Positions 14,997 through 54,213 of a DNA stretch of 64,000 nucleotides are shown here, one piece after another. The notes under the pieces were generated by a model, which saw only the letters and a list, made by a program, of their open reading frames with translations, made no database searches and was not told where the DNA came from. Source of the stretch: a virus. The position numbers were made by a program, and so were the translations under genes. The stretch spans positions 32,001-96,000 of IMG/VR virus record IMGVR_UViG_3300043772_001024. One strand, written 5' to 3'. Within the stretch, counting starts at the first letter, position 1, and each line of letters begins with the position of its first letter.

Positions 14997-17654
14997 TTAC
15001 ATTAAAAATGGCCATAACATGTCAGCATATATATAACCTCCTTTCTTATATGCAGCACCACCATATCTACTAATGTTCATTTTTCTTTCAAGATCCATTG
15101 CCTTTAAAACATCTGAGTTATCAGTAATACCCATATTTTTAAATCTAGCCATTTTAGTTGCAAAATCTTCTGCAGGTTTTTCTGGAGTGATCGCTTTATT
15201 GTTTGTATTAACATAATACTCATCACCAGTAACAGGATCAATATTCCACTTCATACCTTGAGCTTGATTTACAGCAGCAAGTGTTCTTGCATTACCTTTC
15301 ATTTTAGCAAACTTATCTCCTACATTAGCCCAGTAATTATTATAGTCTTGAGCTTTATTACTTTGCCAAGTTGCATTTCTTTGATTGTAAACATCAGATG
15401 CATCTTTATCCATCAGTAATTGGTTGTACTGATGTTGAGTATTAGCTTTATTAAGTGCTGTTGCTCTATCTGCATTCTGCGCATTTACTTGAGAAGCTAA
15501 GTTAATTATATCACCTTGAGATCCTCTTTGTGCCGCAAACATAGCAGCAATAGCTCCACCAGGATTATTAGCAGCAGTTTTTTGAATAGCATTTATTGTA
15601 CCTTGTGTCATACCTTTTGCTAATTCAGCTTGAGCTATATAATCAGCTCTTTGTGCTTGTTCTCTTACAGCTGGTGCTTTACCATGTATAGTAGGAACAT
15701 TAACATTTCTTTGAGCCATTGCAATACCAAGATTTAATTTATCTTCTGGAAGATATTGTAAACTTTGAGGTAGGTTTTGTTGAATTGGTTGCATTTGTTC
15801 CATTTCATATCCTTCACAAGGAGGACACGTACCATCAGCATTTTTAGGGAACACTGCTTCGTCACCTGTCATAGGATCAGTACATACACACTCTTCTTCT
15901 TCAGTACCTGTTGTTGTTGTAGTTATTGGTTCTTGAGGTATTATGTGTTCTGCTTCTTCAAATGATGTATTTACTTTATTTATACAATCTTTATAAGTTT
16001 GACCTTCTGGAGAACTGTATATAATTTCTAATGCTTTTGCTTTAGATTCTTCCCAATTTGGATCTCCTGGTCTTGCACCCTTTAACCATTTTGGAAAAGC
16101 TTCAACTAACATTTGGTCTATATTTCCTGATTTAGTAATTTTATCACATAAGCCACCAGCTACACCTTTAGGATCTGCTTTACCACTTCCAGCACCTTTA
16201 TAATATTTTACATCTTCTCCCTTTCTTCTTCTGTATTGACCTTCATATCCACTTGATGATTTACCTTTGGTCCAGTCAGTACCGGATGAAAATGTGCCAA
16301 CTTTTTTTGACTTTATTCCTCCAACAGTTTCACCATTATCAGCTTTACGTAAAGGAACACCACCATAAGCCATCTGATTAGGATTGTTATAGAATGGCAT
16401 TCCATAACCACCCATAGACATACCATACATAGCCATAGGAGCTTGTTGCATTTGTTGTTGTGGCATTTGTTGTGCCATAGCCATCATCTGTTCAGGAGAA
16501 GGTTGTCCTTGTGGAGGAGCTTGCATTCCTGGTTGAGCTCCTTGTTGTTGCTGAGCCATCATCTGCCTTTGTTGTGCAGCTTGTTGTTGCAAGTTATTAA
16601 GAGCATCTGTAACCATTTCTTTTGCCTTCATTTCCGGAATAGCAAGATTACCAAGAACTGTAATTATATCTTCAGGAGTTATTCTGCTTTGCAATAAGTT
16701 TAGAAGAATCTCATCCATTTCTTTTCCTTGATCAACTGCACTTTTTACATCTGCTGTAATTTTATTTAATGCAACTTCTAAACCTTTATCAGCATGTCTC
16801 AACATTCCACCATGTCTCATACCTGGTTGCATTGGAGGTTGTTCCATTCCTTGTTCTTCAGGCATAGCTACAGGAGAACCGTCAGGCATTGTTGGAGGCT
16901 CATTAGCTTCAATAGCTTGTTGAGGTGCTCCTTCTGCCATTGCTTGACCCATATCAATTGCCTGACCTGCTTGTGCTGGTGATTCTTGTTCTGGTTGATC
17001 CGGTAGTATGTCTTGTTCAGAGATACCATTAGCTTCCATATATTGTTTAGCCACAGATGGAATTCCTTGTGGAAAACCTTTCTTAGCTTCTTGAGCTAAA
17101 GCTAATGCACCTAGTTTAATGATCATTTTCTTTATCATTAACTCTGCAGTTTTTATTTGCACTTTATCTGAACTAGGATCTTGCATTGTTGCTCTATACT
17201 TATTTAATGCAATAAACTGTTTAGATAAATCTGCCGGGGTATATCCTCCTTTCTTAGCTGCTTTATTAAACATCTTAAGAATAGCAGGATCTTTGATCAT
17301 CATCTCCTTAGTATCACTAAAGATAAAACTATCATCCGGAAGATTTAATGGTACACCATTAGCACTATGTCTAGGTCCTTTAATTTCATAAAACAAAGGA
17401 TATCCAGAAGGATCAAATGTTAATACAGTTTCTCCACCTTCAGCTTCTAGGTTAGCTTCCTCTCTAGGTACTTTTGTTATTGTAGTTCTAGATACTGCTT
17501 TAGGTTCTGTAAGTTTTAAGTTACCACCACCAAATGCTGAAAGATCATTTGCTAATGATCCTTCTACCTGATATCCAGTCTTAGCTTTTGGAGGCTGAGT
17601 TATTTTTACTTTAAATAATTCAGGAGCTTCTGCTATTTTAACTCTGTATCTCAT
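14997..17654 (-). CDS. Putative cargo protein 1-like (885 aa)
   Basis: N-terminal NLEAEGGETV...GPRHSANGV...FIFSD resembles the conserved crAss-like cargo N-domain; Q/M/P-rich linkers; several [YM]xxGG motifs. Confidence 0.6.
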   Translation of the reverse strand: MRYRVKIAEAPELFKVKITQPPKAKTGYQVEGSLANDLSAFGGGNLKLTEPKAVSRTTITKVPREEANLEAEGGETVLTFDPSGYPLFYEIKGPRHSANGVPLNLPDDSFIFSDTKEMMIKDPAILKMFNKAAKKGGYTPADLSKQFIALNKYRATMQDPSSDKVQIKTAELMIKKMIIKLGALALAQEAKKGFPQGIPSVAKQYMEANGISEQDILPDQPEQESPAQAGQAIDMGQAMAEGAPQQAIEANEPPTMPDGSPVAMPEEQGMEQPPMQPGMRHGGMLRHADKGLEVALNKITADVKSAVDQGKEMDEILLNLLQSRITPEDIITVLGNLAIPEMKAKEMVTDALNNLQQQAAQQRQMMAQQQQGAQPGMQAPPQGQPSPEQMMAMAQQMPQQQMQQAPMAMYGMSMGGYGMPFYNNPNQMAYGGVPLRKADNGETVGGIKSKKVGTFSSGTDWTKGKSSSGYEGQYRRRKGEDVKYYKGAGSGKADPKGVAGGLCDKITKSGNIDQMLVEAFPKWLKGARPGDPNWEESKAKALEIIYSSPEGQTYKDCINKVNTSFEEAEHIIPQEPITTTTTGTEEEECVCTDPMTGDEAVFPKNADGTCPPCEGYEMEQMQPIQQNLPQSLQYLPEDKLNLGIAMAQRNVNVPTIHGKAPAVREQAQRADYIAQAELAKGMTQGTINAIQKTAANNPGGAIAAMFAAQRGSQGDIINLASQVNAQNADRATALNKANTQHQYNQLLMDKDASDVYNQRNATWQSNKAQDYNNYWANVGDKFAKMKGNARTLAAVNQAQGMKWNIDPVTGDEYYVNTNNKAITPEKPAEDFATKMARFKNMGITDNSDVLKAMDLERKMNISRYGGAAYKKGGYIYADMLWPFLM

Positions 17655-17659
17655 GTTGA

Positions 17660-20600
17660 TTATTTTATATATTCTACTTTACCTCCGGCAGCTTCAATAG
17701 CTTTTATTTGATCCATAGTTAAACTATAAACTTTACCTTTAGCATATTGTGAATTCATTTGTCCACCTTTCTTACCATACAGACCACCTTCATAACCTTG
17801 TTTACCAGGAGTGCTTCCATATTGAGTTTCATTACCACTTGCCATCAAGTCTGAACCTTTTCTTTCTGCAGAACCAAAACCTGATTGACCTGTATTAGCA
17901 GTAGCAGCATCAGATGTTCTTGATCTTTGTGCAGCTAAATCCATTTTTCTACCCTCATCTCTAGCATTTAAAAATCCAGTAGTCAGTCCTGTTAAACTTG
18001 TTGGACCACTAAATAAATCTGTAGCAAGTTGTCCTGGATTAAATGTATAAGCAGATTGTTCTACTGTTCTACCTATAAGATTAGGATCATTAAACTCTGC
18101 TTTATCTACAGTGATACCAGGTTTAGCTTTTGGTAAATATCCACCGTAAGCCATGTATTCAGGTACATAACCACCATAAGCCATATAACCACCATAAGCC
18201 ATTGGTAATTCATCTAAACCATCTTCTCCAGTATAAGCTGGATTAGATCCGCTTGATGGAGGTGGTACTCCAGGATTATAATCTTGTGGAGTTGGAACAA
18301 ACTTTGGATCAGCCATAGGGTTGTCTTCACCAGGTGCAGAATATGAAGGACTAGATGCTGCTGGTCTACCCATATTAGTATTTCCAGTTACACCTGTACT
18401 TGCAGTACCAAATGCATTACCTCCAAAAGGATTTGAAGAAACATTAGATTGTCCAGACATTGAAAAATTATTTGGACTTTCTGCATATTTTAAATTACCT
18501 GATGGTTGAACACCTGTGCTAGCAGATCCAAATTGATTTCCACCAAATGCATCTCCAGTAAATGGATTACTTGATGATACAGCAGATTCACCTTGAGATT
18601 GCATTGTTTCAGGAGCAGTTCCAGATAATTTACTAGGAATTTGAGAAGCACCTCTTGTAGGCATACTGCTTGGAGGAGTAATAGATTCAGCATCTGCATT
18701 TACAAGTCTACCTTTACTATCAATACCCATTGGGTTTCCTTCAACATCCACATTAGTCATCAGCATTTCATTTTTGCCAAGCTTCATTCCTTTTGCAGTT
18801 CTTGTATCTGTTGTTTCTTCATCATCTTCTCCACCAGTAGTTGTTGTTCCTGCATTAATATTAGTACCAGAACCTTGTTTGTTTATCAAATCATCTGCAG
18901 CCCCATCTTCAGGATCAGCATACCATTCTCTTACTCTTTTAGTATCAAATGGGTTATACCACTTACCTCTATCTTTGTATGCTACTTCTCTAATCTTTTT
19001 AGTTCCTTCAGGTACTTGCCAATTAACCGGAGAAAAAGCATTGCTATAATTAAAATCTCTTGTAAGTCCAAAACCTAATCTTTGAGGTCTACCTACTGAG
19101 AATTGACCTTGACCCATTCCTTGTTGTCCCTGCATCATTTGCATCATTTGCATATATTGAGCCATTTGGTTTTGATTACCCATAGAACCATAATTATCTC
19201 TATTTTGATTAAATGTAATTTGATCACCTACTTTATATCCACCACTTTGAGGACCTTGATTTTTTGTAAGATCAAAGTTTCTACCACTTGTTGTTCCTGT
19301 ATTAGGTTGACCAGTTGGTTGGAATCTATTACCTACAGTACCAGAAGGTTGCATACCTGTAGTAGCTTTACCAAATGCATTACCAGCAAATGGGTTTACA
19401 TCTACTGGATTTTTACTACCCATTTGATCTATTCTGTTTTTGGTAGCATTCATTTGTTTTTGAAAGTTGGTAATATAACCATCATATGCTTTATGTAAAA
19501 CATCTCCACCATATGCATACTCATCACCTCCATAGATAAACTTCTGAAGATTACCATATTCATCAGGTTCTACACCAGATATTGGACCTCCCATTTGGTA
19601 GTAGTCATAATATTTTGTTGCTAGTGGGTTTAAAGACAGTCTTCTTTTTCTTTCATTTATTTCTTTTTCTGTTGTTTCTGCAGCTGTGTCTTTGATAAAG
19701 CTACCATCTGGCTTAACAATATCATAACCATTAGCTTTATTAATTTCTTTATACTTTTTTGCTCTAACATCTTTTGGTATACGTGCTAGATAATTAAATT
19801 TCTGGTCAAAAGCTTCTTGATTAGCCTCCTCTGCTTTAGTACGTTTATCAGACCAAGGAGAAAATTCTGAACTTACCGCAGACCAACCCATATGAGAATC
19901 AGAGTCACCCAGTTGACTACTTTGTGTACCATCTGGATTTGTAACTATATAACTTTCATCAAGGCCATATTTGCTAGGATCAGCATTATATTCTTTTTGA
20001 CTTACTGGATTACTCCAAACTAATGATTCATCTACATTAGTATTGTCATCATCATATTGACCAGACCATACTAAACCTCTTTGATCAACATCATTTCCTT
20101 TTGGATTTTTAATTACTTCTCCTGTTGCAGGATCTATCATATAACCATACTGAGAAGGATCTTTTGCTTGATTATAAAGAGAGTCTGTAAACTTATCAGA
20201 ATCAGCTTTTTGTTTAGATAATTTTGCAAAATCACCTGCCCAGTCTTGACCATAATCTATAAGACCAGGTATATTAGTTTGTTGACTTTGTAAAGGTGCA
20301 CCCCCTACAGATTGAGCTTGTGTAGATTGAGAAGCTGCAGTAGAACTTGCACTAGATGAAGGTCCTGTAGCTTTCATAGTCTTTTTACCATTCAGCATTC
20401 TTGCATTTGGATTCTCAAAAGGATTACCCAATAGCTCTTCCGGATCTGGTAGATCAACTATAGATCTTACTCTGTTACCATCTTGATCTGCACAGTATCC
20501 TAAGTTAGGGTCATATACAGATCCTGGAGGACATTTAATCTCATTCTTTTTACTTGACTTATTATTTTGTGCAGCAGTGGAATTTGGATTTTGTTTTGCT

Positions 20601-21688
20601 ACTTCATCTAAAGCAGCATTGTTTATAGTGCTGATAGTTTTCTTTCTTACTTGTGCTGGGTAGCTTACTTTTTTATAAGACATCATACCTGGCCCCATCA
20701 TACCAGGAAACATTCCAGGCATCATATTCATTGCACCAGGAAGCATTTTAGCTAAATCTCCAATAGCATCTAAATCCCATGTAGCTTCAGCTTTTCTTAA
20801 ACCACCTAATGGTCCAAACTCATAATTAACATTTGCACCAGGTATTGCTGTTGGTGTTCCAAATAAAGCTCTGTTAGCTCTTGCAATTTTTCTATTTCTT
20901 CCACCAAATAGAAACTTACCATTAAAATTATCTCCCATTGTAGATTCTTGATATTGTTGATATTCATTTTCTGCTGTTTCTTTCATCTTAGCTTCATTAG
21001 CAGTTTGCTTAATTATGGCAGCTAAGTTTTTTTCAGGAGGTGTAAATCCAGAAGGACTATCTATTGTTCCTCTTGGAGATATGTTAGTTTCATTGTTTTT
21101 TACTTCTTCCCCTTGAGCAGCTTTTCTTAATTCTTTAATTCTCTTTTTTACATAAGCACCTTTGGTTAAACCACCAAACTTATAAGCATTGTCATAAGGC
21201 TCTGCATCCATTCCGATATAATATGGTTGCTTAGGTTTAGGTACTATACTGCCTGGGGCAAACTGTCCACCTTCTGCATATTGACCACCATATCTTGCCA
21301 TATCTTCATCATCATCTTCATCCGCACCTTCATTAACAACGGCAAGTCCTTGATTGTCACCTCCATAGTAATCATAAATAGCAGCATTATCAGGCTCCTC
21401 TTCTTCTATTACTTCTGTTGTTTCTTCTTGTACTGGTGTATCATATGGAGCAGATGCTTCATCCTCATCATACTCATCATCTCCTAGAAGATCATATTGT
21501 TTGTAAACCTTATCTCTTGCTTGATCTCTTGATAAACCAAACTCAGCCATCTCATAGATAATAATTTCAGGATCTTTACCTTCTGCAATCTTTTTATTTA
21601 TTTCTTTATCTATGTTAACAGCCATACCATCCTTGGCTTTTACCAGCTTACCTTTCCCATCCGGAGCTTTATATAATCTAACTTTCAT
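17660..21688 (-). CDS. Low-complexity putative internal virion/cargo protein (1342 aa)
   Basis: Largely G/N/Q/S/M-rich and disorder-like; about 10 [YFM]xxGG motifs; NPF-xG-xAFG repeats; cargo block position. Confidence 0.55.
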   Translation of the reverse strand: MKVRLYKAPDGKGKLVKAKDGMAVNIDKEINKKIAEGKDPEIIIYEMAEFGLSRDQARDKVYKQYDLLGDDEYDEDEASAPYDTPVQEETTEVIEEEEPDNAAIYDYYGGDNQGLAVVNEGADEDDDEDMARYGGQYAEGGQFAPGSIVPKPKQPYYIGMDAEPYDNAYKFGGLTKGAYVKKRIKELRKAAQGEEVKNNETNISPRGTIDSPSGFTPPEKNLAAIIKQTANEAKMKETAENEYQQYQESTMGDNFNGKFLFGGRNRKIARANRALFGTPTAIPGANVNYEFGPLGGLRKAEATWDLDAIGDLAKMLPGAMNMMPGMFPGMMGPGMMSYKKVSYPAQVRKKTISTINNAALDEVAKQNPNSTAAQNNKSSKKNEIKCPPGSVYDPNLGYCADQDGNRVRSIVDLPDPEELLGNPFENPNARMLNGKKTMKATGPSSSASSTAASQSTQAQSVGGAPLQSQQTNIPGLIDYGQDWAGDFAKLSKQKADSDKFTDSLYNQAKDPSQYGYMIDPATGEVIKNPKGNDVDQRGLVWSGQYDDDNTNVDESLVWSNPVSQKEYNADPSKYGLDESYIVTNPDGTQSSQLGDSDSHMGWSAVSSEFSPWSDKRTKAEEANQEAFDQKFNYLARIPKDVRAKKYKEINKANGYDIVKPDGSFIKDTAAETTEKEINERKRRLSLNPLATKYYDYYQMGGPISGVEPDEYGNLQKFIYGGDEYAYGGDVLHKAYDGYITNFQKQMNATKNRIDQMGSKNPVDVNPFAGNAFGKATTGMQPSGTVGNRFQPTGQPNTGTTSGRNFDLTKNQGPQSGGYKVGDQITFNQNRDNYGSMGNQNQMAQYMQMMQMMQGQQGMGQGQFSVGRPQRLGFGLTRDFNYSNAFSPVNWQVPEGTKKIREVAYKDRGKWYNPFDTKRVREWYADPEDGAADDLINKQGSGTNINAGTTTTGGEDDEETTDTRTAKGMKLGKNEMLMTNVDVEGNPMGIDSKGRLVNADAESITPPSSMPTRGASQIPSKLSGTAPETMQSQGESAVSSSNPFTGDAFGGNQFGSASTGVQPSGNLKYAESPNNFSMSGQSNVSSNPFGGNAFGTASTGVTGNTNMGRPAASSPSYSAPGEDNPMADPKFVPTPQDYNPGVPPPSSGSNPAYTGEDGLDELPMAYGGYMAYGGYVPEYMAYGGYLPKAKPGITVDKAEFNDPNLIGRTVEQSAYTFNPGQLATDLFSGPTSLTGLTTGFLNARDEGRKMDLAAQRSRTSDAATANTGQSGFGSAERKGSDLMASGNETQYGSTPGKQGYEGGLYGKKGGQMNSQYAKGKVYSLTMDQIKAIEAAGGKVEYIK
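18140..18202 (-). repeat. Tandem coding repeat encoding MAYGG x3
   Basis: CCACC(A/G)TAAGCCAT occurs three times on the + strand. Confidence 0.85.
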
Positions 21689-21703: not shown

Positions 21704-21737
21704 TAAATATACTAAATTTTAATTTAACTGATAAACT
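21704..21737 (-). promoter_or_regulatory. Putative late promoter GTTTAT-N19-TATATTTA
   Basis: Copy of the recurrent GTATATT intergenic motif upstream of the 1342-aa gene. Confidence 0.55.
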
Positions 21738-22692
21738 TTTTAAGTTTACTTACTGGTTCTACTATGTATCCTTGGTCTATATATTTCTGTATTTCTTTTT
21801 CTGGTATATCTATTTCTATATAGTCATTAGTTGATCCACCCTTTCTTTTTTGATTTAGGTTATCACTATCAATATCTTCACCTGTATCACCAATATTTAT
21901 AACTTGTTGCCAAGGAATAGTTTTATATAAAGTTTTAATTGAACTAGGATCTAAATATTTAAGTTTACCAAACTTACCTAATGCTGGTACTGCACCAAAC
22001 ATATCAGCAGCTTGTCTCCATGTAGGTAAATCCATTCCACTTTCTTGCCAATCAGAGTATGCATTTTTTGCATCTCCCCAAGAAAGATATCCAGTTGGAT
22101 CAAAAAATTCTGCTACATTTTCTCCAAAAGATTCTGGCATATGTCCAGTTTTAGTTCCTGTAATTGTTACTTCAGGAAAAGTTTTTTGTAAAACTGTATC
22201 TTTATTTCTTTTTTGTTTGATCTCTTTGTTTAATAAAGCCTTATTACTAAAAGAATTATTTACAGGTTGTTTAGATCCTTTTCTAGTTAATGAGGGTACT
22301 GGTTTTTTGCTTTGATTACCTTGTCTCATTCTAGACATTAAACCTTGCATAAAAGGATCTTCAACACACTTTTTACCATTCCACTTATATCCTGGAAGAC
22401 AGTCTGTTGAACCCCCATCTATAAATCTATTTAATGTGGGTATAGAAGGATCACTTACTTCTTCTACTATATAACCACCATCAATATACTTTTGTACATC
22501 TTCTTCAGATAAATCTAATTTAATATAGTCTTTTTCACCACCATCTTCATATTTAAATTTAGCTGTAGGATTGTAAACTCCCGGAGCCCTTTTCTTTTTT
22601 CTTTTTTTAAATAACTTGTTTTTTACAAATAGTCTGTTGGTAGCAAATATGTTACTATTCTGCAATGGCCCACCTTTTTTAAAATCAGTCAT
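21724..22692 (-). CDS. Putative internal virion protein (322 aa) with duplicated DYIxxDxxExxxQKYIDxGYIVExVS module
   Basis: Directly after the muzzle gene; FKKGG/YEDGG/FIDGG/KRKGG motifs; internal 26-aa repeat. Confidence 0.55.
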   Translation of the reverse strand: MTDFKKGGPLQNSNIFATNRLFVKNKLFKKRKKKRAPGVYNPTAKFKYEDGGEKDYIKLDLSEEDVQKYIDGGYIVEEVSDPSIPTLNRFIDGGSTDCLPGYKWNGKKCVEDPFMQGLMSRMRQGNQSKKPVPSLTRKGSKQPVNNSFSNKALLNKEIKQKRNKDTVLQKTFPEVTITGTKTGHMPESFGENVAEFFDPTGYLSWGDAKNAYSDWQESGMDLPTWRQAADMFGAVPALGKFGKLKYLDPSSIKTLYKTIPWQQVINIGDTGEDIDSDNLNQKRKGGSTNDYIEIDIPEKEIQKYIDQGYIVEPVSKLKKFIS

Positions 22693-25600
22693 TATCTTAA
22701 AGAGTATTGGTTCTTACTATTAAATAATTTAAGGATCATGTTAGTATCCCTTGAGTCAGCTTTACTAAGATACATGAAGTTAACCATGTGTCTGAATTTT
22801 TTTCTTTGTAACAAAGATTTATTATAGTCTACAGCTTGAGGGTTAATAGCTTTTTTATAACCATTAGCTTCTGTAATCCACAACATGTTCTCTGGATAGT
22901 TTCCTAATAAAGTTGTAGTACCTGGAATAAGCTGTCCAGATGGTGGATAACCTGATCCATTAGGGAATTCTCCACGGTCTTTAGTAATATCCCAAAACTG
23001 GTTAACTCTGTATTTGTTCTCTTCTTTAGAAAACAAGATATCATATGAGTTATTGTTTATATTAAGTTGTGGATACAATAATGATAATGCTATATTATTC
23101 TTAGGGAATACATTAAGATTCAAGTATCCTGATATTTGTTCTGAGTTATGTATAACTAGTCTATCAAAGTTATAATCCAATATATGGAACTGATCACTGC
23201 AGAATCTTCTTTCTCTTCTATAACACTCAAGTACATACTCTATACTTTTTACTGTTGTAACAGATTGACCGGTAGTTATTGGGAACTCAATTTCAAAAGG
23301 ATACTGCACACCATAAAAATTACAGTAATCATTACAGTTAGCACCATGTTTATAAAACTTATTTGTCTGTGTAGTTATAAAACTATCTTTAGTAGGCATA
23401 ACAAGATCTGGATGCCAATCATGGAAGCTTATCCAAAACTGAGACTTAGGGTCATAACTTACTGTCCATGAGGCATCTTCAAATATTCTAGGATCTCCAA
23501 GTGCTAGTTTAATAGGTGTATTTGAAGGTTTACCATCTACATAAGGATAATAATTAAAATAACTTTCTTTACCTGAATTTATATTAATTACTCTTCCTGC
23601 TAATGGAAAACCATCAGGACCAATTTCTTTTAACTTATAATCTTTTTTACAAAAGTAAAGTACAGAGTTATAGTTATCATATACTGCTTGTGTTCCAACA
23701 CCTGCTACTGGATTATCCTGATATGGATAATCAGGAAAATCCTCAAGTAATTTACACGGCAAGAAATAATCAAACCACCATTTCATACCAGCTTGAGATA
23801 CTTCTTGAAGACCTTCACCATATGAGAATACTTTACCTTGATCTTGTGATATATAATATAGTCCCGCTGGAGTTGATATTACTGACAATCTTCCTTGAGA
23901 TGACCCATACATGTATGGTTTATCTGCTACTACAATATTTTGAGGTTCTCTTGCAAATACACCTCCGTCACCTATAATGACTTTTGTTCCTGATCCATCC
24001 ATCTCAAGTGTATCAACACCTTGGAATACTATTGGACTATCATTCTTAAATGTAACAAAGGCTCCAGTTTTAGCAAAGTTTTTAACTCCACTAATCTGAC
24101 TAACAAATTCTTTTCTGTTTAACGGTAAGAATATAAACCAATTATCAGTAGATGATGTTTGTGAAACAGGTAATGAATATGTAATAGTATTTGGATAATA
24201 AGTATAACATAACTCAGCAACCTCAGGATTATAGTACACACTCTGTAAAAATCCAAATGATGTATATCTGTTTGTAAGCCTTGTTATACTTAATGAATAA
24301 TCATATAGATAAAAGTTACCTTCTGTTGCAGTTATCTTATCCATTCTGAACATAGTCTCTAAGTCTGTATACCTATATGGGTTATAAGCCTTTTCATAAT
24401 CAAAGACACCAACTTCTCTAAAGTCATTTATTACATCAGACTCTACAAAAAAGTCTCTTACTCCAGATGCTGATAAATAGAAATATGCATTCTTAACATT
24501 TGTAAACCCGTCATATGAAACTGGTGGAATTATGCTCCAAGCTTTATCAGTTCCTCTATTATAACCTTTATGATCAAGATTAAAATAATCATTTGGTAAA
24601 AATCCGTCACCTGTTGTTCCATTATAAAAGTCATTTATCCATTGTGTCCAAGTTCCAGGGTTGGCTATATTAAGCTGGGATGCATCATACTTTTCACTAT
24701 TAGCCCAATACCTAGGTTCAGGAATCATCTGACTATTAAAGTAATTATACTCATAACCATTGGGTTCTGTATATAACCAATTATAGAAAAAGAACATTGG
24801 ATTCTTTTCTGTAAATCTTGTTATGTAAGTATCACCACCAAATATTACAGGAGTTTGGTTAATTGTTTTTAATGTAACAGATTTATTTGTAGGAGCTGGT
24901 AAATTATTAGTTGTATATGGTAATGTTGCATAATCAAACTTTTGCTCACATGGTGTTATTGGAAACTGAGTAATACTTTTTAACTGTCCATATTGGTCAT
25001 CATTGTCTATTTTCATAGCACTATAATGACTACCAATTCTTGTAGTAAATTCTATGCTCTTTTTCTTTTCAGTAAACTTTGGACCAGCTGCACCTAAAGC
25101 ATCATCAAACATACCAAGACTACCTAGTGATTGATCTAGCCCACTGGTACCTGTTATTAATAATTTAGGACCATCTGTAGTTGGAGTATTAGCTCTCTCA
25201 GTTCTCAACATTAATAACTGACTTCTCTTGTAGTTATTAATAGTGTATTTTTGAAATTGATTCATGGTAATAGTATCATCATAATCATCTATCTCAAATG
25301 AGATATTTTTAAATATATATGATGAGTCTGCAATTTTAAATCTCTTTGTATCATTTATATTAAATGGTTTAAATGCATCATATAAACCATGACCAATAAG
25401 TTGTAAAGCATATTGTCTATATGGTGCTAAGGCATATATTAAATCTGCTGCAGCATTAACACCTTCCATAAAGTATTGTGATATTTGAGTTACACCACCT
25501 AATGCACTAAACAACCCTTGTGTCCATGAAGGTAACATAGCATTTCCTGATAGCTCATTAGTATAACTATTTGTATTAAATATACCTCCTTCAAATAGTG

Positions 25601-37332: not shown

Positions 37333-37845
37333 TTATTTTAAGAAAAGTAATTTATATTTAGTAGAATTAATTGCATCCTTTACTAAATCTAAGTTGTTTA
37401 CTATCTCAGAATAAGGTAACATCCCTTGGAGTTTGTTTACCATAGCATAAATATCTCTAAGATATGATACACCATCTGCTACAGTATCTAAGGTTCTTGG
37501 TGTTACTTCAGAATACTTTAATAGTTTTTCTGCAGCTCCCTGATATCCTTCAACTAAGGTATCTGCAAAATCAGGTATAGCATCATATAACTCATTAAGA
37601 GCTTTGTGTGCTGCATAAGATCCATCACCTGTTACTTTAAGATGTAGCTTATGAAAACTTGTTCTTGCATTCATAAGTTCTGAAGCACATGCAGATACCA
37701 TAGTATCTAATGAACTACCACCAACTCCTGTATCTGGAGTAGGTTGTGGTTTAGCTGGTTCTTCTTTTGGTTGAGTAACTGTAACTTGTGGTCTAGCAAT
37801 TGTTTTTGCTGGCTCCGGATTTCTTTTTAATAATCTTGTTGACAT
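37333..37845 (-). CDS. Dps/ferritin-like protein (DUF5856-like)
   Basis: FHKLHLKVTG..SYAAHKALNELYD..PDFADTLVEGYQG...KYKLLFLK four-helix ferritin-fold signature. Confidence 0.75.
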   Translation of the reverse strand: MSTRLLKRNPEPAKTIARPQVTVTQPKEEPAKPQPTPDTGVGGSSLDTMVSACASELMNARTSFHKLHLKVTGDGSYAAHKALNELYDAIPDFADTLVEGYQGAAEKLLKYSEVTPRTLDTVADGVSYLRDIYAMVNKLQGMLPYSEIVNNLDLVKDAINSTKYKLLFLK

Positions 37846-38552: not shown

Positions 38553-39065
38553 TTATTTTTTTCTTTTTACAGAGCCGCCTTTTTTAAAAGCTTCTTTATA
38601 ATCTCTATCTAATATTTTTTTTCTATGTGTTCCTTCTTCTGAATTCCAATCAATATTATTCATATTGTTCATTTCATTAAGTTGGGCATTTTTATTATAT
38701 TTTTGATTCCAGATTCCTTCTTTGTTTAAACCTGTTCCTAATCTTTTATTATTAACACCAACTGCAGGAGATCTTAAATAATTTTCAAAAGCAGATCTAT
38801 CTTCTTTTTCTATTTGTCTATATTGATCTTCAGTACCATAACCCATATTTGGTTTTGCTGGTGCAAATGGTGTATTAGGTGTAGTTGTAGATGGAAAAGC
38901 TTGATCAAGTCTTTTAGTATCTGATTCTGTTAAAGGTCCAGCATATGTATTTTTAAAAGACATACCATCTTGAGCTTTCTTAATAGACTTTTTTACTGAA
39001 GCTTGTCTAGCTTCATTAGCTTTTCTAAAGAATGTAATTGGATTTTCTTTTTTAGTTTTTTTCAT
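38553..39065 (-). CDS. Basic hypothetical protein (170 aa)
   Basis: KAQDG and terminal FKKGGSVKRKK motifs. Confidence 0.6.
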   Translation of the reverse strand: MKKTKKENPITFFRKANEARQASVKKSIKKAQDGMSFKNTYAGPLTESDTKRLDQAFPSTTTPNTPFAPAKPNMGYGTEDQYRQIEKEDRSAFENYLRSPAVGVNNKRLGTGLNKEGIWNQKYNKNAQLNEMNNMNNIDWNSEEGTHRKKILDRDYKEAFKKGGSVKRKK

Positions 39066-39236: not shown

Positions 39237-39881
39237 TTATCTTTTTTTAGCTCCGCCCATTTTTTTAATAACACCTCTACCTTTTAAGATATCAGCTCTA
39301 GTAACTTTACCATCTTTGTTTAAATCTGGAAAACCACCTTTTTTAAATCTAGGTCTTTCACTAACACATTTTCCAGAAGCATCTTTCACCATACCTCCAC
39401 GGCAACCAGGTGACACAGCTCTATTAGTAGTAGAACCACCTTTCTTAAGGATACGTCCTTGTTCAGATCTTGGATTACTACTATACATTGGCATACCCAT
39501 CATTGGTAAAGTTGCACCACCCATAGCATATTTTTTCTTAGCACCACCAAGTTTCTTTTCTTCTGTAGGTTCATTTAATTTTTTTCTAGCTTCTTTTCTA
39601 GTCATTCCGGGATTAGCTTTTTTAATCTCTGATACTGCTTTTCTTTTTTTACTAGCATCAGCAATCATTTTTCCAGCAACAGCAGCTGAGCCACCAATGC
39701 TACTTACAAGACCAGCAATTAAACCAGCACCACAAGGTCCACAACCAACTTTTTTTCCACCAACAGATATTGGACACTTTCCAGGAGGGCATTCTCCAGG
39801 ACCACTTTTAGCCATTTTCTTAACAGCAGTAACCTTACCACCATCTTTCATTTTACCACAACCGTATTTACAAGTTTTCAT
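39237..39881 (-). CDS. Lys/Gly-rich protein (214 aa) with six xxxGG motifs and one hydrophobic segment
   Basis: MKDGG, KKLGG, YAMGG, LKKGG, FKKGG, KKMGG; FPDLNKDGKVTRADILKGRG (EF-hand-like loop). Confidence 0.65.
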   Translation of the reverse strand: MKTCKYGCGKMKDGGKVTAVKKMAKSGPGECPPGKCPISVGGKKVGCGPCGAGLIAGLVSSIGGSAAVAGKMIADASKKRKAVSEIKKANPGMTRKEARKKLNEPTEEKKLGGAKKKYAMGGATLPMMGMPMYSSNPRSEQGRILKKGGSTTNRAVSPGCRGGMVKDASGKCVSERPRFKKGGFPDLNKDGKVTRADILKGRGVIKKMGGAKKR

Positions 39882-39894: not shown

Positions 39895-40176
39895 TTAACA
39901 ATTCCACTTTCTTAAAGACTTATTGATCCTTGAATCAGGATCATTAGCTGTCTTAGAGCTTGTTAGTTTTTTCTTCATCCCACTCATCCTAGCACAGAAA
40001 CTTTTTCTTCTCTTAGCAGACTTGCTATCTGGATCAAGCTTTGATGGTTTAGTAGTCACAGCTGTCTTAAGTTTACTACCAGGATTAGCTGCCCTATAGC
40101 TTGCTACACCTTTAGCATTAAGCCCACCTTCTGGATTCTTACCTGCTTTTCTTTGCCATGCTGGTGACTTAGCCAT
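39895..40176 (-). CDS. Small basic phage protein (DUF6321-like)
   Basis: WQRKAGKNPEGGLNAKG...RRKSFCARM...SRINKSLRKWNC recognised as a widespread aquatic-phage family. Confidence 0.7.
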   Translation of the reverse strand: MAKSPAWQRKAGKNPEGGLNAKGVASYRAANPGSKLKTAVTTKPSKLDPDSKSAKRRKSFCARMSGMKKKLTSSKTANDPDSRINKSLRKWNC

Positions 40177-40426: not shown

Positions 40427-40735
40427 TTAATGTTTTTTAGATGTTCTCAATCCTTTAGAAGAAGCTTGTCTTCTTAATGAATTTCCTTTTATTGTTGCTC
40501 CACCTTTTTTATACAATTTTGCAGCCTTTTCACGTCTTTCTTTTCTTCCTTCTGGTGTATTCTCATATTTAGCTTGACTGCCTATCTTTTCCAGTACATT
40601 TGCAGGCTTAGGTCTAATTCCAATTGTATCCCCTCTATTATTATCAGTATTGATTGATATTGATCTTTTACATTTACATGCAGTAGAATCCCATTTCTGC
40701 ATTGGTGGGCATTGTTTTGGTTTACAAGGTTCCAT
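40427..40735 (-). CDS. Small basic protein (102 aa)
   Basis: CPPMQKWDSTACKC hairpin and YKKGG. Confidence 0.6.
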   Translation of the reverse strand: MEPCKPKQCPPMQKWDSTACKCKRSISINTDNNRGDTIGIRPKPANVLEKIGSQAKYENTPEGRKERREKAAKLYKKGGATIKGNSLRRQASSKGLRTSKKH

Positions 40736-41094: not shown

Positions 41095-41475
41095 TTATCC
41101 TCTTCCAGGTGTAGCTTTTTTAGGAGCTTTACTTCTTGGTTTAGAAGGTTTCTTAGCTGTGTTAGAAGCAGCAGCTTTAGGATTAACACCAGATTTAACA
41201 CCTTTGCTACCTGCAGATTTAGTTGCTACTAAATTAGCATTAGCATTCACCATACCACCTGTTTTCATTTTTTTAGAAATACCTTTACCATATAGTTTAT
41301 TAGATCCTGTAGGTGGAGTATCAGATTGAACTTTTTGTTCTTCTGGTGCAGATGAGGGTGTTGCCATAGTAGCTGGAGAATTACTTTTAGTTGTTGGTCC
41401 ACCTACTCCATATTTTTTAGTACCACCTTTTTTCATCATTGTTTTACCATACATAGCTTTAGATAACTTTTTCAT
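41095..41475 (-). CDS. Disordered Lys-rich protein (126 aa)
   Basis: MKKGG, YGVGG, MKTGG motifs; histone-H1-like tail. Confidence 0.6.
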   Translation of the reverse strand: MKKLSKAMYGKTMMKKGGTKKYGVGGPTTKSNSPATMATPSSAPEEQKVQSDTPPTGSNKLYGKGISKKMKTGGMVNANANLVATKSAGSKGVKSGVNPKAAASNTAKKPSKPRSKAPKKATPGRG

Positions 41476-42585: not shown

Positions 42586-44202
42586 TTAGAATGATCCACC
42601 TGTGATTGGGTTTCTCATGACTATCTTCAACACCTTGGTCGGATCCTTAACCCAGATAGCCGGCATTGTTTGGCTCATCATTACACGGTATCCATTGAAT
42701 TGTCCAGAAGACTGGAATCCTTGGCTACGTCCCATGTAATCCATAGTACCATTTTGATACCACCATTTCAATTGATTATCCCAAGACAATTTCAATAAGA
42801 AGATATTGTCATTAGTGTTATCAGTGATGTCAAAGATAATGAATGAATAAGAACTTAATGGGAAACCATCAATGATTGGGTTCTCAATGTCATTAGTATG
42901 AACATTGTCAAATGCTGGGTTCAATACAAACTTAACATTTGCCAAGAATGGAATTACATAAGAAGTGTAAGCAAATCCAAAGTTCAAGTCCATACCTTTA
43001 CCAGTGATTGCACCAATATCAGCAGCCTGAATTAATAAACCTGAAGATACTGCTTCACGTTTGATAGCTTCATTTACCATTCTCATTCCACCCATACCTG
43101 TTTGTACAACTAGTGAACGCTTAGGATCTGGACCTTGGAATTCAACTTTACCATTGAAGAAGTTGTAGATCTCTCCACGGAACAAATCAAGTGTAAAGTT
43201 ATTTTTGTTGTATACTCTTTTGAATGAGTTATCCAACTGTTTCCAAAGACCCACTGATAATCTTAGATCATCTGGACCATCTTGACGTACTCTACCTCCT
43301 TGTCCCCACATTAAGTAAGTCTCAATATCAGAAGCAATTTTAGTTAAGTGAGCAGCTTCCATTGTAGTTAAGAAAGTACGTGATAAGTCTCCGTTATCAA
43401 ATGCTTTTTTAACTTTGTCTTTACCCATAACTTTAACCATATCTTCTAAAGATGTGATTGATGGATCTACAGATTTGTCAAATGTTCTCCAGATCTCAGT
43501 TACAGGAACTGTACCATCTGCATTCATACCACCTTTGATCATCAAGTCAGCACGGCTAGAGATAGAATAATGTACGTGAGCTTCAGCACCACCAACAAAG
43601 TTATAGAATTCACGGAATCCTGTTCTTGTTGTGATGTCAGAGAATCTCTCACCATACTCACCTCTTGCAGAACCTTTACGGAAAACTTTAGTACCATTAG
43701 CTAAGTACTTGTTATCCAAATATTTGAAGTTGTCATTGTTTACTAACTGTACAGTATAGATATAAGCATCTCCTAAAGGAAGGATGTCTTCTGCAGTTAT
43801 GTACATCTCAACACCATTGTATTTGTCATAAGTGATGATATCACCATGTCCAAACTCACGTCTGCTAAGTTTGATACGGAAGGTTGAGCCTTCAATACCT
43901 TTAAAGTTGTTTTCTGGTTCAATATCCTCAAGGATGTAAGGTAAGTCTACAGACACAGGAGTCTGCCACTTATACTCACCACGAGCATTATCAACCATAA
44001 TTACATTTTTACCACCAAAGCTAGACATTTGGTAAAGAGGCATTTCTACCTTCTGAGCCATAGCCCAAAGGTCCACTGGACCTAAATCCATTGGTTCTGC
44101 ATCCTTTAACATGTTAACCAAGTGATAAGAGTCTACATGTGACGTAGCATTGTACGCGGTATCCCGTAGAAATATACCATTGTTTAAAACTGGAGTTGCC
44201 AT
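42586..44202 (-). CDS. Major capsid protein (crAss-like, HK97 fold)
   Basis: 538 aa; order TerL-portal-scaffold-MCP; EYKWQ, ETYLMWG, SVGLWKQL, VVQTGMGG motifs; high-expression codon bias; strong terminator. Confidence 0.9.
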   Translation of the reverse strand: MATPVLNNGIFLRDTAYNATSHVDSYHLVNMLKDAEPMDLGPVDLWAMAQKVEMPLYQMSSFGGKNVIMVDNARGEYKWQTPVSVDLPYILEDIEPENNFKGIEGSTFRIKLSRREFGHGDIITYDKYNGVEMYITAEDILPLGDAYIYTVQLVNNDNFKYLDNKYLANGTKVFRKGSARGEYGERFSDITTRTGFREFYNFVGGAEAHVHYSISSRADLMIKGGMNADGTVPVTEIWRTFDKSVDPSITSLEDMVKVMGKDKVKKAFDNGDLSRTFLTTMEAAHLTKIASDIETYLMWGQGGRVRQDGPDDLRLSVGLWKQLDNSFKRVYNKNNFTLDLFRGEIYNFFNGKVEFQGPDPKRSLVVQTGMGGMRMVNEAIKREAVSSGLLIQAADIGAITGKGMDLNFGFAYTSYVIPFLANVKFVLNPAFDNVHTNDIENPIIDGFPLSSYSFIIFDITDNTNDNIFLLKLSWDNQLKWWYQNGTMDYMGRSQGFQSSGQFNGYRVMMSQTMPAIWVKDPTKVLKIVMRNPITGGSF

Positions 44203-45582: not shown

Positions 45583-48333
45583 CTACTTTTTATTTTTCAC
45601 TGAACCACCTTTATCATATTTGTTTTTATTCACTCTTGCTACTTGAAGTTGTTTATCAGCTATCTCTCTTTGAACTTGTAGCTTCTCTCTTTCAATAGCA
45701 TTCTTATCTCTATCTAACATAGTTCTGGTAGCTTCTTTATCTCTTTGCAATTGATTTTGCATTTGATATTGCTCACTTTGTCTTATATCTTTTAAAGCAT
45801 CTTGGTAATCAGATATCTGATTCTGATTAATATCAGCCATAGATCCATAACCAGCAGCTCTAATTTCAGCAATAAGTATTTCAGTTTGTCTATCTTTCTC
45901 TTTCTCAGCAGCAGTAGCATCAATCTTCATCTTCTCAATCTCTTGTTGTTTCTGAAGTTGTTGTTCTTGCATTTGCTGTTGTTGTTGCATTTCTTCTTGT
46001 TTTTGCTGCTGTTGTTTTTGCTCAGAAGATTTAAGAGCACTGTTAAGTTCAGCAATAGAATCAGATTGAACAATTTTACCAAGATCATAGATAGAAGCTC
46101 CTGTAGTATTATTCTGCATAGCCATTTGTTTTAACTGTTCTAAAACAGCTCTGTGGTTTGCGGTTGTACTACAGAATATATTAAGATCTCTCATCAATAA
46201 GTCAGTACCATTTATTTCAAAGTTTACTTTCTCATCTGCTGTAGTAATATAACTTAATCTGCTTGATGGTTTTGTAGAGTGATAATACTGCGCTAAGTCA
46301 GTTCTCATCTGGTGAACTCTTGGCATTAAGTAATCACAGTGCTGAACAAAGAACATTTCTGTTTGAGCATATGAAGAAGCAGCAGCTTGTTCTACTCCGG
46401 TAGCAGTCATTTGAGCTATTTGTTGTCCCATCCTTTGTGGAGTTACACCTATTACTTCATAAGCTTGTTGCTTGAAGTGATTAGCTAACTGTATCCTTGA
46501 CATTAATCTCTCTGTCTGAGATAGATCTAGTTTTTGGAAATGCTGGAAGTTTAATGCATTCTCTGTATTTGTGATAGATGTATCTAGAGGTAGCATCTGG
46601 AAGTTCTTCATTGCTACATATGCTTTAGCATAATTACCTTTCCCCCAGTCTTCTCCTAATGAGTGTCTTGGTAAAGTATTCTGGTCAAGCATGATAATAG
46701 TTCCTAGTTCATCTACTAATATATCTGCAATCTGATTGTTAACTATATTATATCCAATCTGGTATGGTTTCATTAAGTCAATAAGTGCAGTAGACTTAGT
46801 ATTTCTATCTGAGAATACAGATCCTTCTACTGGAAGTTTACATCCATACAAGCTATTATCACCTTTAAACTGAAATCTTAGTGGTCCTATCTTAGGTTTA
46901 TCAACTCCAATATACATAGGAGTAAATCCTCCCGGATTATTCATACCCCAGAAAGAAGGTATGTTTGGCCCTATCTTTATACCACCCCATACTTCATTGA
47001 TCCATATCCAGTCAATATGTTCACCGTAAACTAAGTTATCTTTAGTTTTGTTTTTCATCAATCTGGTATCATAAATTGGTTTAGTAGATATTGTGTAATC
47101 TTCATCTACTATATCCATCTCTACTTTACCATTATCATCTATACTTATTAGATGCCCTATTTTTCTCTGAGACTTCCAATATATAGTTGATACCCTTAAT
47201 AAGTATGCTGTACCTTGATCATAGTAATCCTCACCTTCAGATAGTATTTGAGTAATGATATCCCCGCCTTCTAATACAGTACCACCCATTGCAGTTGTAT
47301 ACTGTCTATATGCTAATGAGGGCATATTAGTATTCCAATCATGTGATTTGGTACCGTCATAAAAACTACCATCATTTTGAAGACCACCAATTGTGTATCC
47401 GGCAGATCTGATTGGGTATACTGCTTCTAAAGCTCTTAATTGTTCTTCATCCATCAGATATCCATATCTATCAATAACATCAGCAGGAGTCATCATATCT
47501 GTCTTACCGGCCCAGTTAGCTTGAGATATATATCTAGCATCTGGAGATTTATGATAAAATGAAATAGCTGGATTCCATAACTCTACTTCATAATCATCTT
47601 CCATCATGCGGAAATGCCAGAACTCTCTATCTGTAATTAACATGTCACGGAAGCCTCTTTCTTCAAGTTCATCCATTCTGAATCTTTCTACATCCACTTT
47701 ATGTTGATGTGTAGCCCACTCTTCTACCATTGACCTGTAATCTTTTCTAAAGTACATTTCAATTTCAGGAAGGGATTTTAATTTCTCTGGTGATGTCTCT
47801 TGTTGGAATTCTTCTGAATCAGGCTGAAGTCCTTTATCCATAAGTGCAGAAGATACTTTAAGTCTTGCATCTTGTAATAGAACATCTTCAACCATTTGTC
47901 TTTTCTGCTCTATCATCTCATTGTATGAATGTTCATCAACAGCTCTATAAGTCAGCTTAGTTGATCTTTTAGCAAATTCAGCCACCAGAACATTAATAAC
48001 ATTTGGTATAATTGGATAGAACTTTAACTCTAATGCAGAAACATCTTCTTTAGTTAAAAGATCCACAATGTCTCTGTAATCATTATTTTCTTCTACTATG
48101 TAGTCTGACTTATCTATAATACCTTTTGCAAGTTTATAGTTCTTCATCAGTCTTCTAGCATTTCTCCGGATTTGTTTTAAGCCTTGCCACTCCAACCAGT
48201 CTAAATTCCATGCTGCCCACTTCTCATCCTTTTCTTTTTTTGTAATAAACTGTAATGGTTGGGTGATACTACCCATTCTATTATTTTCAGTTGTGGCTCC
48301 TCCTTTTGCTTGTAAAGCATTTATTATCTTCAT
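45583..48333 (-). CDS. Portal protein
   Basis: 916 aa after TerL; YPIIPNVINVLVAE, WINEVWGG, SLIDLMKPYQ-like and GVTPQRMGQ motifs; C-terminal Q-rich coiled barrel. Confidence 0.9.
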   Translation of the reverse strand: MKIINALQAKGGATTENNRMGSITQPLQFITKKEKDEKWAAWNLDWLEWQGLKQIRRNARRLMKNYKLAKGIIDKSDYIVEENNDYRDIVDLLTKEDVSALELKFYPIIPNVINVLVAEFAKRSTKLTYRAVDEHSYNEMIEQKRQMVEDVLLQDARLKVSSALMDKGLQPDSEEFQQETSPEKLKSLPEIEMYFRKDYRSMVEEWATHQHKVDVERFRMDELEERGFRDMLITDREFWHFRMMEDDYEVELWNPAISFYHKSPDARYISQANWAGKTDMMTPADVIDRYGYLMDEEQLRALEAVYPIRSAGYTIGGLQNDGSFYDGTKSHDWNTNMPSLAYRQYTTAMGGTVLEGGDIITQILSEGEDYYDQGTAYLLRVSTIYWKSQRKIGHLISIDDNGKVEMDIVDEDYTISTKPIYDTRLMKNKTKDNLVYGEHIDWIWINEVWGGIKIGPNIPSFWGMNNPGGFTPMYIGVDKPKIGPLRFQFKGDNSLYGCKLPVEGSVFSDRNTKSTALIDLMKPYQIGYNIVNNQIADILVDELGTIIMLDQNTLPRHSLGEDWGKGNYAKAYVAMKNFQMLPLDTSITNTENALNFQHFQKLDLSQTERLMSRIQLANHFKQQAYEVIGVTPQRMGQQIAQMTATGVEQAAASSYAQTEMFFVQHCDYLMPRVHQMRTDLAQYYHSTKPSSRLSYITTADEKVNFEINGTDLLMRDLNIFCSTTANHRAVLEQLKQMAMQNNTTGASIYDLGKIVQSDSIAELNSALKSSEQKQQQQKQEEMQQQQQMQEQQLQKQQEIEKMKIDATAAEKEKDRQTEILIAEIRAAGYGSMADINQNQISDYQDALKDIRQSEQYQMQNQLQRDKEATRTMLDRDKNAIEREKLQVQREIADKQLQVARVNKNKYDKGGSVKNKK

Positions 48334-53520: not shown

Positions 53521-53522
53521 GA

Positions 53523-53807: not shown

Positions 53808-53830
53808 TTTATATATTTTAAAAGTTTAAG

Positions 53831-53862: not shown

Positions 53863-53871
53863 ATTTAAAAC

Positions 53872-53902: not shown

Positions 53903-53922
53903 AGTATGAGTAAAATTATAAT

Positions 53923-54213
53923 TTATTTTTCTCTTTGGTTTTTCATCCACAGTGCACCAGCTGTTCCTGCTAAGGCTGCACCTACAGTTCCTAATATCCC
54001 ACCTTTGCTATCTTTAGATTTACCTTTGCTTTTAAATTTTTGTCTACATCTTTTTTTTCCAGGACCTCCAGGGCCAGCGCATTCAGACATAACATCTGTT
54101 GCTCCACCAACTTCATAGCTTTTCATTGATCTTATCATTGGTGCAGGTCCACCTTTTTTCATTGACTTACAAAATACTGTAGCATCTGTAACTCCTTTTA
54201 GTCCATTTTTCAT
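53923..54213 (-). CDS. Small basic protein with MKKGG/YEVGG motifs and C-terminal hydrophobic helix
   Basis: GGILGTVGAALAGTAGALW putative TM segment. Confidence 0.6.
   Translation of the reverse strand: MKNGLKGVTDATVFCKSMKKGGPAPMIRSMKSYEVGGATDVMSECAGPGGPGKKRCRQKFKSKGKSKDSKGGILGTVGAALAGTAGALWMKNQREK

Follow-up and report, generated by a model that had tools for sequence, protein, structure and literature searches.

Why do proteins without detectable kinship in one phage genome share a pentapeptide, and is that peptide bound or cut? The question is raised by a 64,000-nucleotide stretch (the window), bases 32001-96000 of one 111,742-bp phage contig (IMG/VR record IMGVR_UViG_3300043772_001024), in which the genes lie nearly all on the minus strand. 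An initial annotation, made from the sequence, had listed [YFM]xxGG pentapeptides in proteins assigned to the virion block and proposed that they serve as either a docking tag or a cleavage site. The listed pentapeptides are all present on the minus strand, and BLAST detected no similarity among nine named carriers, in line with the claim that these are mutually unrelated. The enrichment of the motif, its specificity of register, its restriction to particular gene sets, its conservation in relatives, and its position at joints and ends of proteins are established, and together they describe a genuine short linear motif shared by a fast-evolving, most likely particle-borne set of proteins of a crAss-like phage. 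Docking and cleavage cannot be separated by sequence alone; we tentatively favor the former, with the motif as a multivalent tag at module joints that would be left uncut and serve for docking or cohesion.

The motif is enriched in one register and in two gene sets

The strict motif was defined as [YFM]-x-x-G-G, and the null expectation was obtained from residue shuffles within each protein, which keep its composition. Genome-wide, 43 copies were observed versus 18.3 ± 4.2 expected (2000 within-protein shuffles, maximum 34), so that the motif does exceed the Gly-content background, a check that the initial annotation had asked for. The same excess was found in each of five related whole genomes (z 4.2-5.8), which together with the present one make up the comparison set of six (this genome and G001-G005).

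The excess is restricted to two sets of genes. The first is the trio directly downstream of the muzzle gene, encoding proteins of 322, 1342, and 885 amino acids (aa), with 17 copies observed versus 3.1 expected. The second, with 8 copies versus 0.9, comprises small basic proteins encoded in a block that follows the capsid genes and is bounded by the 338-aa capsid-adjacent gene on one side and the 232-aa gene on the other. The remaining proteome is at expectation. When counts were split by position in four genomes with automatic position assignment, the post-muzzle trio had 13-17 copies (expected, 2-3), the small basic block had 3-8 (expected, 0.5-0.9), and the remaining ~100 proteins had 16-22 (expected, 12-17). 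The excess is evident even in single proteins, with nine copies versus 2.1 expected in the 1342-aa protein (P < 0.0005) and four versus 0.27 in the 322-aa protein.

A pattern-free scan around Gly-Gly pairs (11 positions by 20 residues) returned Y(-3) (z 4.0), M(-3) (z 3.7), and T(+3) among its three strongest signals. Tyr, Phe, or Met occupies position -3 of 43% of the isolated Gly-Gly pairs in cargo proteins and 42% of those in the small block versus 14% in the rest of the proteome; these residues are depleted at -2 (2-7%), a position held by Lys, Gln, or Ala, and are near background at most other offsets. The residue after the Gly-Gly pair is mostly Ser or Thr in proteins of the small basic block; in the large cargo it is mostly Tyr, Ser, or Asp. 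In some copies Pro stands directly after the pair. The Gly codons within the motif have the same usage as genome-wide, mostly GGT. This rules out a DNA-level cause, such as a Shine-Dalgarno-like AAAGGAGG under K-K-G-G, and indicates that selection acts on the peptide and not on the DNA.

In some cargo proteins a Leu-Pro/Arg-Lys-Ala-x-x-Gly element lies downstream of the motif. The (K/H)AxxG variant said to follow the motif is real in this genome, with 10 [KRH]-A-x-x-G elements in the cargo versus 2.3 expected and four copies of the combined motif versus about 0; as a general companion it does not hold: G004 shares the enrichment, and three of the five relatives lack it.

Copies lie at module joints and near protein ends

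Motif copies lie in conserved islands predicted to be disordered. They are found at N-termini, just ahead of basic tails at C-termini, and at joints of exchangeable modules, and some form short tandem arrays. In the small proteins only about a third of the copies are within 25 residues of the N-terminus; the rest are in the interior, in tandem, or toward the C-terminus. Some copies lie 5-25 residues from an N-terminus and others 4-10 residues from a C-terminus, and short basic leaders precede the N-terminal ones. Some bearers are highly basic and probably DNA associated, and others are acidic.

The 885-aa family, with 1853 detectable homologues, gives the clearest view of this arrangement. Its conserved parts are an N-domain (residues 1-215), a Met/Tyr/Gly-rich island (residues 404-441), and a hydrophobic C-tail after two Gly-Gly pairs. 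The island has two motif copies and then a Lys-Ala-x-x-Gly element; downstream of it, members have at least five unrelated continuations, and the tandem copy number varies from 2 to 4, with 3-11 residues between the copies of such arrays. An extra helical module (residues 286-372; predicted local distance difference test [pLDDT] score, 92-95) is preceded by its own motif and Lys/His-Ala-x-x-Gly copy, and family members without the module also lack that motif copy. In the AlphaFold2 (AF2) model of the 885-aa protein, the helical module starts 3 residues past one motif copy, and all four strict motifs (MRHGG, MSMGG, MAYGG, and YKKGG, to which SRYGG may be added as a looser copy) are in segments with a pLDDT of <40. 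The C-tail (14997-15050) consists of Gly-Gly, an alternating aromatic/aliphatic run with a Pro-Phe pair, and the C-terminus, and it is kept where the upstream sequence differs.

Across the cargo families, internal BLAST alignment ends are ~3-fold enriched within 5, 10, and 15 residues of a motif relative to random positions, the pairs compared being non-independent. The core of the initial proposal, a short tag common to nonhomologous, probably particle-borne proteins and bracketing exchangeable segments, is thus upheld: breakpoints cluster near the motif, and the inserted module carries a copy. Conservation of the motif also outlasts that of the surrounding sequence. The first two post-muzzle genes of the relatives mostly have no or only a short partial BLAST match to the 322- and 1342-aa proteins and encode 3-8 copies each; syntenic cargo proteins of the relatives in general show little or no BLAST similarity yet have 2-9 copies each. 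The small-protein block of the relatives behaves as the cargo genes do, the motif being kept while the sequence is mostly unalignable.

The 322-aa protein had been credited with FKKGG, YEDGG, and FIDGG, all of which are present; the listing missed YIDGG, the fourth strict copy. Two of its motifs are in or beside a mini-domain of ~25 residues (helix, Gly-Gly, strand) that recurs at its C-terminus. With a motif copy ahead of it, this mini-domain is the usual C-terminus of the first two cargo proteins in the six genomes, with one exception in G004; the third cargo protein ends instead in the motif-preceded hydrophobic tail. Mini-domain sites in the window are at 17660-17737, 21724-21825, and 22438-22530, the first cargo protein having it internally as well as at the end. 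Their layout is a strand, an acidic helix ending in Y/L-x-x-x-G-G or G-Y, and then a strand such as Y-I-V-E. The mini-domain may itself act in packaging or docking, as a second and larger element. The ESM Atlas gave no informative neighbor for the 322-aa protein, and PDB sequence searches with four neighboring structural open reading frames (ORFs) returned no matches.

The 1342-aa protein, which has no match in Pfam, PHROG, PDB, or phage records, carries three tandem MAYGG copies (18140-18202), the last of them followed by a K-A-x-x-G element. It also contains three ~20-residue units (18380-18571 and 19319-19411) rich in Asn-Pro-Phe, Ala-Phe-Gly, and Thr-Gly that resemble the Phe-Gly (FG) repeats of nucleoporins; such FG-like repeats could confer a cohesive, gel-like behavior on the cargo.

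Among the small proteins, the 126-aa family is the most informative. Its sole conserved part is the basic C-terminal ~55 residues, which start exactly at [YFM]-K-T-G-G. Among distinct homologues with >8 residues upstream (n = 133), 126 keep this sequence at the domain start; their N-terminal extensions, 9 to 372 residues long, are unalignable. Five degenerate motif forms differ on both sides of the motif. Loss of the motif in members without an N-extension would have favored cleavage; no such pattern was found among 136 distinct sequences, and members with only 9-20 upstream residues keep the motif. One module of the 170-aa protein is also found inside the N-extension of 126-family proteins of relatives.

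For the Gly-rich 214-aa protein, "six copies" had been reported. Three are strict, the count of six being reached only if Leu or Lys is admitted at -3, and 1-5 copies are retained by the homologues in relatives. In this genome and in G001-G005, the start of the 214-aa family has a Cys-x(3-4)-Cys-Gly knuckle directly before the first motif and further Cys pairs. Neighboring structural ORFs of 63, 81, 559, and 672 aa are likewise Cys rich at their ends.

Gene order and features of the window

The gene order of the window (Table 1) is that of Crassvirales. The 347- and 220-aa proteins ahead of the muzzle gene match crassvirus tail ring proteins 1 and 2. In crAss001, the genes for cargo proteins gp45 and gp46 come next after that for muzzle protein gp44 (annotated "stabilization protein" in its record), and those for the proteins of the virion RNA polymerase follow (PMC10172136). 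Because the 322-, 1342-, and 885-aa proteins are encoded downstream of a PF25731 muzzle gene, as crAss001 gp45 and gp46 are, we assign them to the cargo position; the same order is found in the Cellulophaga phage phi14:2. Gene position indicates that the motif-bearing set most likely resides in the virion, and it is from gene position only that we infer this for the small basic proteins. Relatives of the capsid protein are present in >598 IMG/VR contigs, the best 80 of which are 91-100% identical.

Table 1. Location of motif-bearing proteins and other features (window coordinates unless stated otherwise)
Feature	Position	Strand	Remarks
885-aa protein, third gene after muzzle	14997..17654	-	Strict motifs at 16806-16820, 16407-16421, 16359-16373, and 15036-15050
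1342-aa protein	17660..21688	-	Nine strict motifs plus ARYGG
322-aa protein, first gene after muzzle	21724..22692	-	Four strict motifs, YIDGG among them
Muzzle protein (1855 aa)	22692-28259	-	Pfam PF25731 crAss_MUZ, E 2e-28
IHF-like gene	37333-37845		
170-aa basic protein	38553..39065	-	Motif FKKGG at 38574-38588, 11 residues from C-terminus, then short Lys/Arg tail
214-aa Gly-rich basic protein	39237..39881	-	Three strict motifs; Cys-rich N-terminus
93-aa basic protein	39895-40176		
102-aa basic protein	40427..40735	-	One motif, at 40499-40513
126-aa basic protein	41095..41475	-	Three motifs, the third at 41254-41268
Major head protein (538 aa)	42586-44202		PHROG match
Portal-position protein (916 aa)	45583..48333	-	C-terminal motif copy at 45604-45618
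96-aa basic protein	53923..54213	-	Two N-terminal motifs; C-terminal hydrophobic Gly-zipper segment
Amidase endolysin gene	54376-55254		
DUF2201 zincin fused to VWA-like domain, with adjoining MoxR-type AAA ATPase gene	Genome 9068-11429, outside the window		Replication block

Two proteins named as carriers in the initial annotation do not belong with the others. The C-terminus of the portal was thought to resemble that of the 170-aa protein; this is probably a chance likeness, as the aromatic-Asp pair is conserved while Gly-Gly is found in only ~7 of ~80 relatives' portals, and we rejected the portal C-terminus as a motif member for lack of conservation. The 96-aa protein had been counted in the virion block. 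Its gene adjoins lysis genes instead, two genes after that for the amidase endolysin, and with this neighborhood and its C-terminal hydrophobic segment the assignment is unsafe. Its motif pair is kept in the homologues of G001-G003.

A scaffold using the same tag was also considered and discarded, as no copy occurs in the acidic, helical 420-aa protein whose gene lies between those of the portal and the capsid. The capsid protein keeps MIKGG at residue 221, probably inside the fold, in all six genomes, an observation that bears on any model of a Gly-Gly-directed prohead protease. The 93-aa basic protein matches, end to end, the C-terminal domain of much larger proteins in eight PHROG families (e.g., residues 849-928 of 928) and hence is a free-standing copy of a widespread phage domain.

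Docking or cohesion as the favored function

Our reading, put forward at somewhat less than an even chance, is that, during procapsid building, the motif would join unrelated cargo modules to one another and fasten them to a conserved part of the virion near the portal, so that any module bearing a copy would get packed. Both the binding function and the partner are presumed here. The tandem arrays and their variable copy number fit avidity better than cutting, and the copies 4-10 residues from a C-terminus speak against cutting because a cut there would release only a tiny basic peptide. The gene-set-specific enrichment, the retention of copies without BLAST similarity, the copies within the helix-Gly-Gly-strand mini-domain, and the Pro residues after Gly-Gly are further points for docking, as are the failure to find a prohead or cysteine protease in the scanned ORFs (see below) and two properties of crAss001 gp45.

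The first of these properties is an excess of aromatic residues within three positions before Gly-Gly in gp45 (9 versus 3.4 expected; P 0.0035). The second comes from the virion structure, in which gp45 segments 214-245 and 425-552 are resolved on the tail rings and on the portal, respectively (PMC10172136). They start 4 and 2 residues from aromatic-Gly-Gly sites, and the end of segment 425-552 lies 6 residues short of the next motif and 10 short of that motif's Gly-Gly; the coincidence is suggestive only (P 0.04-0.07). The site at 425-428, a motif variant, is continuous within the built cryo-electron microscopy (cryo-EM) chain and thus was not cut (PMC10172136).

Several observations weigh against docking. 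The structural analogy with gp45 rests on gene position and composition, there being no detectable homology with the 885-aa protein: the best BLASTP E value was 0.12, the hhalign probability was 0.2%, and PDB (phmmer), Pfam, and Foldseek searches, the last with the AF2 model, gave no match. Taken as a gp45 homologue, the 885-aa protein is therefore unsupported, and the 1342- and 322-aa proteins likewise have no detectable sequence homology to gp45. The small residues after Gly-Gly and the copies close to N-termini would also fit a leader that is removed. The cargo-position proteins of phi14:2, virion proven by mass spectrometry according to the record annotation, have almost no copies; the motif is thus dispensable for some crassviruses, and its dense form is specific to a lineage and not common to them all.

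The last point against docking comes from protein gels. Peptide mass fingerprinting was applied anew to the matrix-assisted laser desorption/ionization (MALDI) peak lists that accompany the original description of crAss001 (Shkoporov et al. 2018, PMC6235969), covering gel bands 1-10 of 13 (at least 58 kDa). Bands 1 and 2 corresponded to gp44, band 3 to gp50 and gp47, band 4 to gp49 and gp44, band 5 to the portal, and bands 6-9 to four tail-fiber proteins. Bands 1 and 2 lie above 300 kDa, and muzzle gp44 is possibly joined there by ring protein gp34. The portal, present like gp45 in twelve copies per virion, gave 11 matches versus 2.6 for decoys, while gp45 (MH675552, 41987-44515) gave no match above decoy level in bands 1-10. 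This would fit processing of gp45; the result is negative only, and gp45 may comigrate with the abundant fiber proteins.

Alternatives to an uncut tag

The main rival, possible but doubtful, is that the bearers are precursors or small polyproteins cut at or beside the motif by an unrecognized protease. Cleavage would release modules and trim short leaders and tails from them, in the manner of the T4 internal proteins or of adenovirus core proteins as they mature. It would account for the motif at module boundaries with homology breakpoints nearby, for modules that occur fused or as separate genes, for the basic leaders before N-terminal copies and the small residues after Gly-Gly in the basic proteins, and for the failure to detect full-length gp45 in bands of at least 58 kDa, a finding that is negative only and covers bands 1-10. 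Phage T5 offers a possible parallel: its tape-measure protein is cut after R1127 (PMC10038345), which sits three residues before a Gly-Gly, a single case with Arg and not an aromatic residue at -3.

The enzyme is the difficulty. The initial annotation had recognized no prohead protease, and domain scans agree: Pfam, applied to 50 ORFs (44 of the 52 of at least 150 aa, the giant cargo genes and all large ORFs included, with eight of 158-601 aa outside), found no prohead, cysteine, or serine protease, and PHROGs, applied to 20 structural-block ORFs (the 735-aa, the 171-aa, and many small ORFs being outside), found no protease. Neither scan found a C39 peptidase or ABC transporter domain in the ORFs covered. 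The only peptidase-like gene found encodes a DUF2201 zincin-VWA protein with HELLH at residue 72. It is a candidate for the cutting enzyme together with the adjoining MoxR ATPase, another candidate being a host enzyme. The zincin/MoxR pair is conserved in relatives, and the HExxH is intact in five of six genomes, the zincin gene of G005 being split into two ORFs ~1.1 kb apart. A family search made to see whether zincin and motif go together across phages found no zincin in crAss001 or phi14:2, but the same search missed the known G005 homologue. Against a role for this protein, its gene is in the replication block, ~35 kb away. Some of the sites themselves would also be odd substrates, namely the tandem copies only 3-4 residues apart and those inside the mini-domain, and copies near C-termini or followed by Pro likewise speak against a cut at each copy. 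In addition, other structural proteins do not avoid the motif, the capsid protein among them with its copy in all six genomes, and the cryo-EM model of crAss001 has an unbroken chain at one site (PMC10172136).

A compound of docking and cutting seems unlikely. Here the motif would be an address-and-processing code: any module bearing [YFM]-[KQA]-x-G-G would first be recruited to the portal-side cargo zone and then freed by cleavage directed at the Gly-Gly pair. A classical prohead protease would not be involved, the candidate enzymes again being the zincin-VWA/MoxR pair or a host protease.

It is quite unlikely that nothing reads the motif specifically and that it is a passive joint, a helix cap or turn plus a flexible Gly-Gly hinge between independently folding or binding modules. 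Such a hinge may let unfolded cargo thread the portal and tail, recurrence then reflecting repeated module shuffling through linkers. The motif does stand at predicted boundaries of order and disorder, as where the modeled helical module of the 885-aa protein begins; it has a helix-Gly-Gly-strand context in the mini-domain, and the ordered gp45 segments start or end near aromatic-Gly-Gly sites. A generic hinge, however, needs neither a bulky residue at -3 nor a -2 position depleted in Tyr, Phe, and Met and holding Lys, Gln, or Ala; near invariance in 126 of 133 family members is not required of it, hinges elsewhere in the proteome are without the pattern, and extreme-terminal copies join nothing.

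A role after ejection, either as a contact for a host envelope or cytoplasmic factor or as an aid to membrane insertion and not as an assembly signal, is very unlikely. Hydrophobic Gly-zipper segments resembling the predicted membrane helix of gp45 in crAss001 occur in several bearers, and the 96-aa bearer is encoded beside lysis genes, but searches suggest no host partner, both acidic proteins and highly basic, probably DNA-associated ones carry the motif, and there is no tie between motif and membrane segments. Hardly any credence can be given to a functionless by-product of Gly/aromatic-rich low complexity and internal repeats, despite Gly-rich bearers and intragenic duplicates (the three tandem MAYGG copies and the 322-aa repeats), because composition-keeping shuffles are exceeded in every genome, the excess is in one register only, and the motif is conserved at nonalignable orthologous positions.

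Significance and comparison with known systems

Crassviruses are among the most abundant phages known and inject megadaltons of protein. The crAss001 structure paper names no signal that selects cargo for packing (PMC10172136). A tag that predicts cargo among fast-evolving, unannotatable ORFs would provide an annotation rule for thousands of uncultured genomes and a handle for loading foreign proteins into such capsids. Whether it is bound or cut is addressable in cultured crAss001, where a weaker version of the motif is present in gp45. Full-text literature searches on the motif or known analogues returned no description of it.

Cargo C1 of crAss001, gp45, is the closest counterpart (Bayfield et al. 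2023, PMC10172136). Its gene directly follows that of the muzzle, and the protein is virion borne and Gly rich, with an excess of aromatic residues before Gly-Gly, a basic N-terminal leader, and a basic C-tail after Gly-Gly; its segments on the portal and tail rings start beside aromatic-Gly-Gly sites. It differs in having the aromatic residue mostly at -1 or -2 and not at -3, and crAss001 lacks a block of small basic motif-bearing proteins. Neither the motif nor proteolysis is mentioned in the structure paper, the text of which has no "cleav-," "proteol-," or "protease" (PMC10172136).

Like the capsid targeting sequence of T4 and the head-protein cleavage motifs of phiKZ and SPN3US, the motif is one short signal on unrelated proteins that are packed and ejected (PMC9026906, PMC10052503). 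Those signals are N-terminal or stand ahead of a Glu-specific cut by a known prohead protease (PMC9026906, PMC10052503), whereas here the signal is also internal, C-terminal, and tandem, ends in Gly-Gly, and is not a single N-terminal leader of ~10-20 residues as in T4. A maturation-protease code would combine a shared motif with an encoded protease; the former is present, and the latter was not found in the scanned ORFs. Such a code would also have mature virion proteins start or stop at the motif, and on this crAss001 points both ways, with one site running on unbroken in the solved chain and gp45 undetected in gel bands 1-10. The motif also departs from the double-glycine leaders of C39 systems, its copies not being confined to leaders and no C39 or transporter domain having been found. 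Polyvalent proteins (Iyer et al. 2017, PMC5512222) are similarly large, mosaic, fast evolving, and delivered with the DNA, and processing by embedded peptidases was proposed for them; unlike these, the motif bearers have no detected zincin or other signature domains, and the word "glycine" does not occur in that paper (PMC5512222).

Two further systems frame the choice between docking and cleavage, and as the initial annotation had pointed to viral Gly-Gly proteases (adenovirus and African swine fever virus [ASFV]), the differences from these deserve note. In encapsulins, short Gly-containing terminal peptides address unrelated cargo into an HK97-fold shell and are not removed. Those tags are single and terminal, the consensus here is different, and the capsid is only a candidate binding partner. 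The adenovirus protease cuts (M/I/L)-X-G-G|X sites in basic core-protein precursors. The likeness lies in a bulky residue before Gly-Gly in small, very basic, probably DNA-associated proteins, near both termini; the adenovirus and ASFV analogy is nonetheless loose, the bulky residue being one position further from Gly-Gly (at -3 and not -2), Tyr, Phe, or Met and not Met, Ile, or Leu, with Lys, Gln, or Ala and not an aliphatic residue exactly two before Gly-Gly, and no adenain-like gene or other cysteine or prohead protease having been found in the scanned ORFs. If the combined address-and-processing function were true, it would amount to an adenovirus-like core-protein maturation pathway in a tailed phage, in environmental crAss-like phages.

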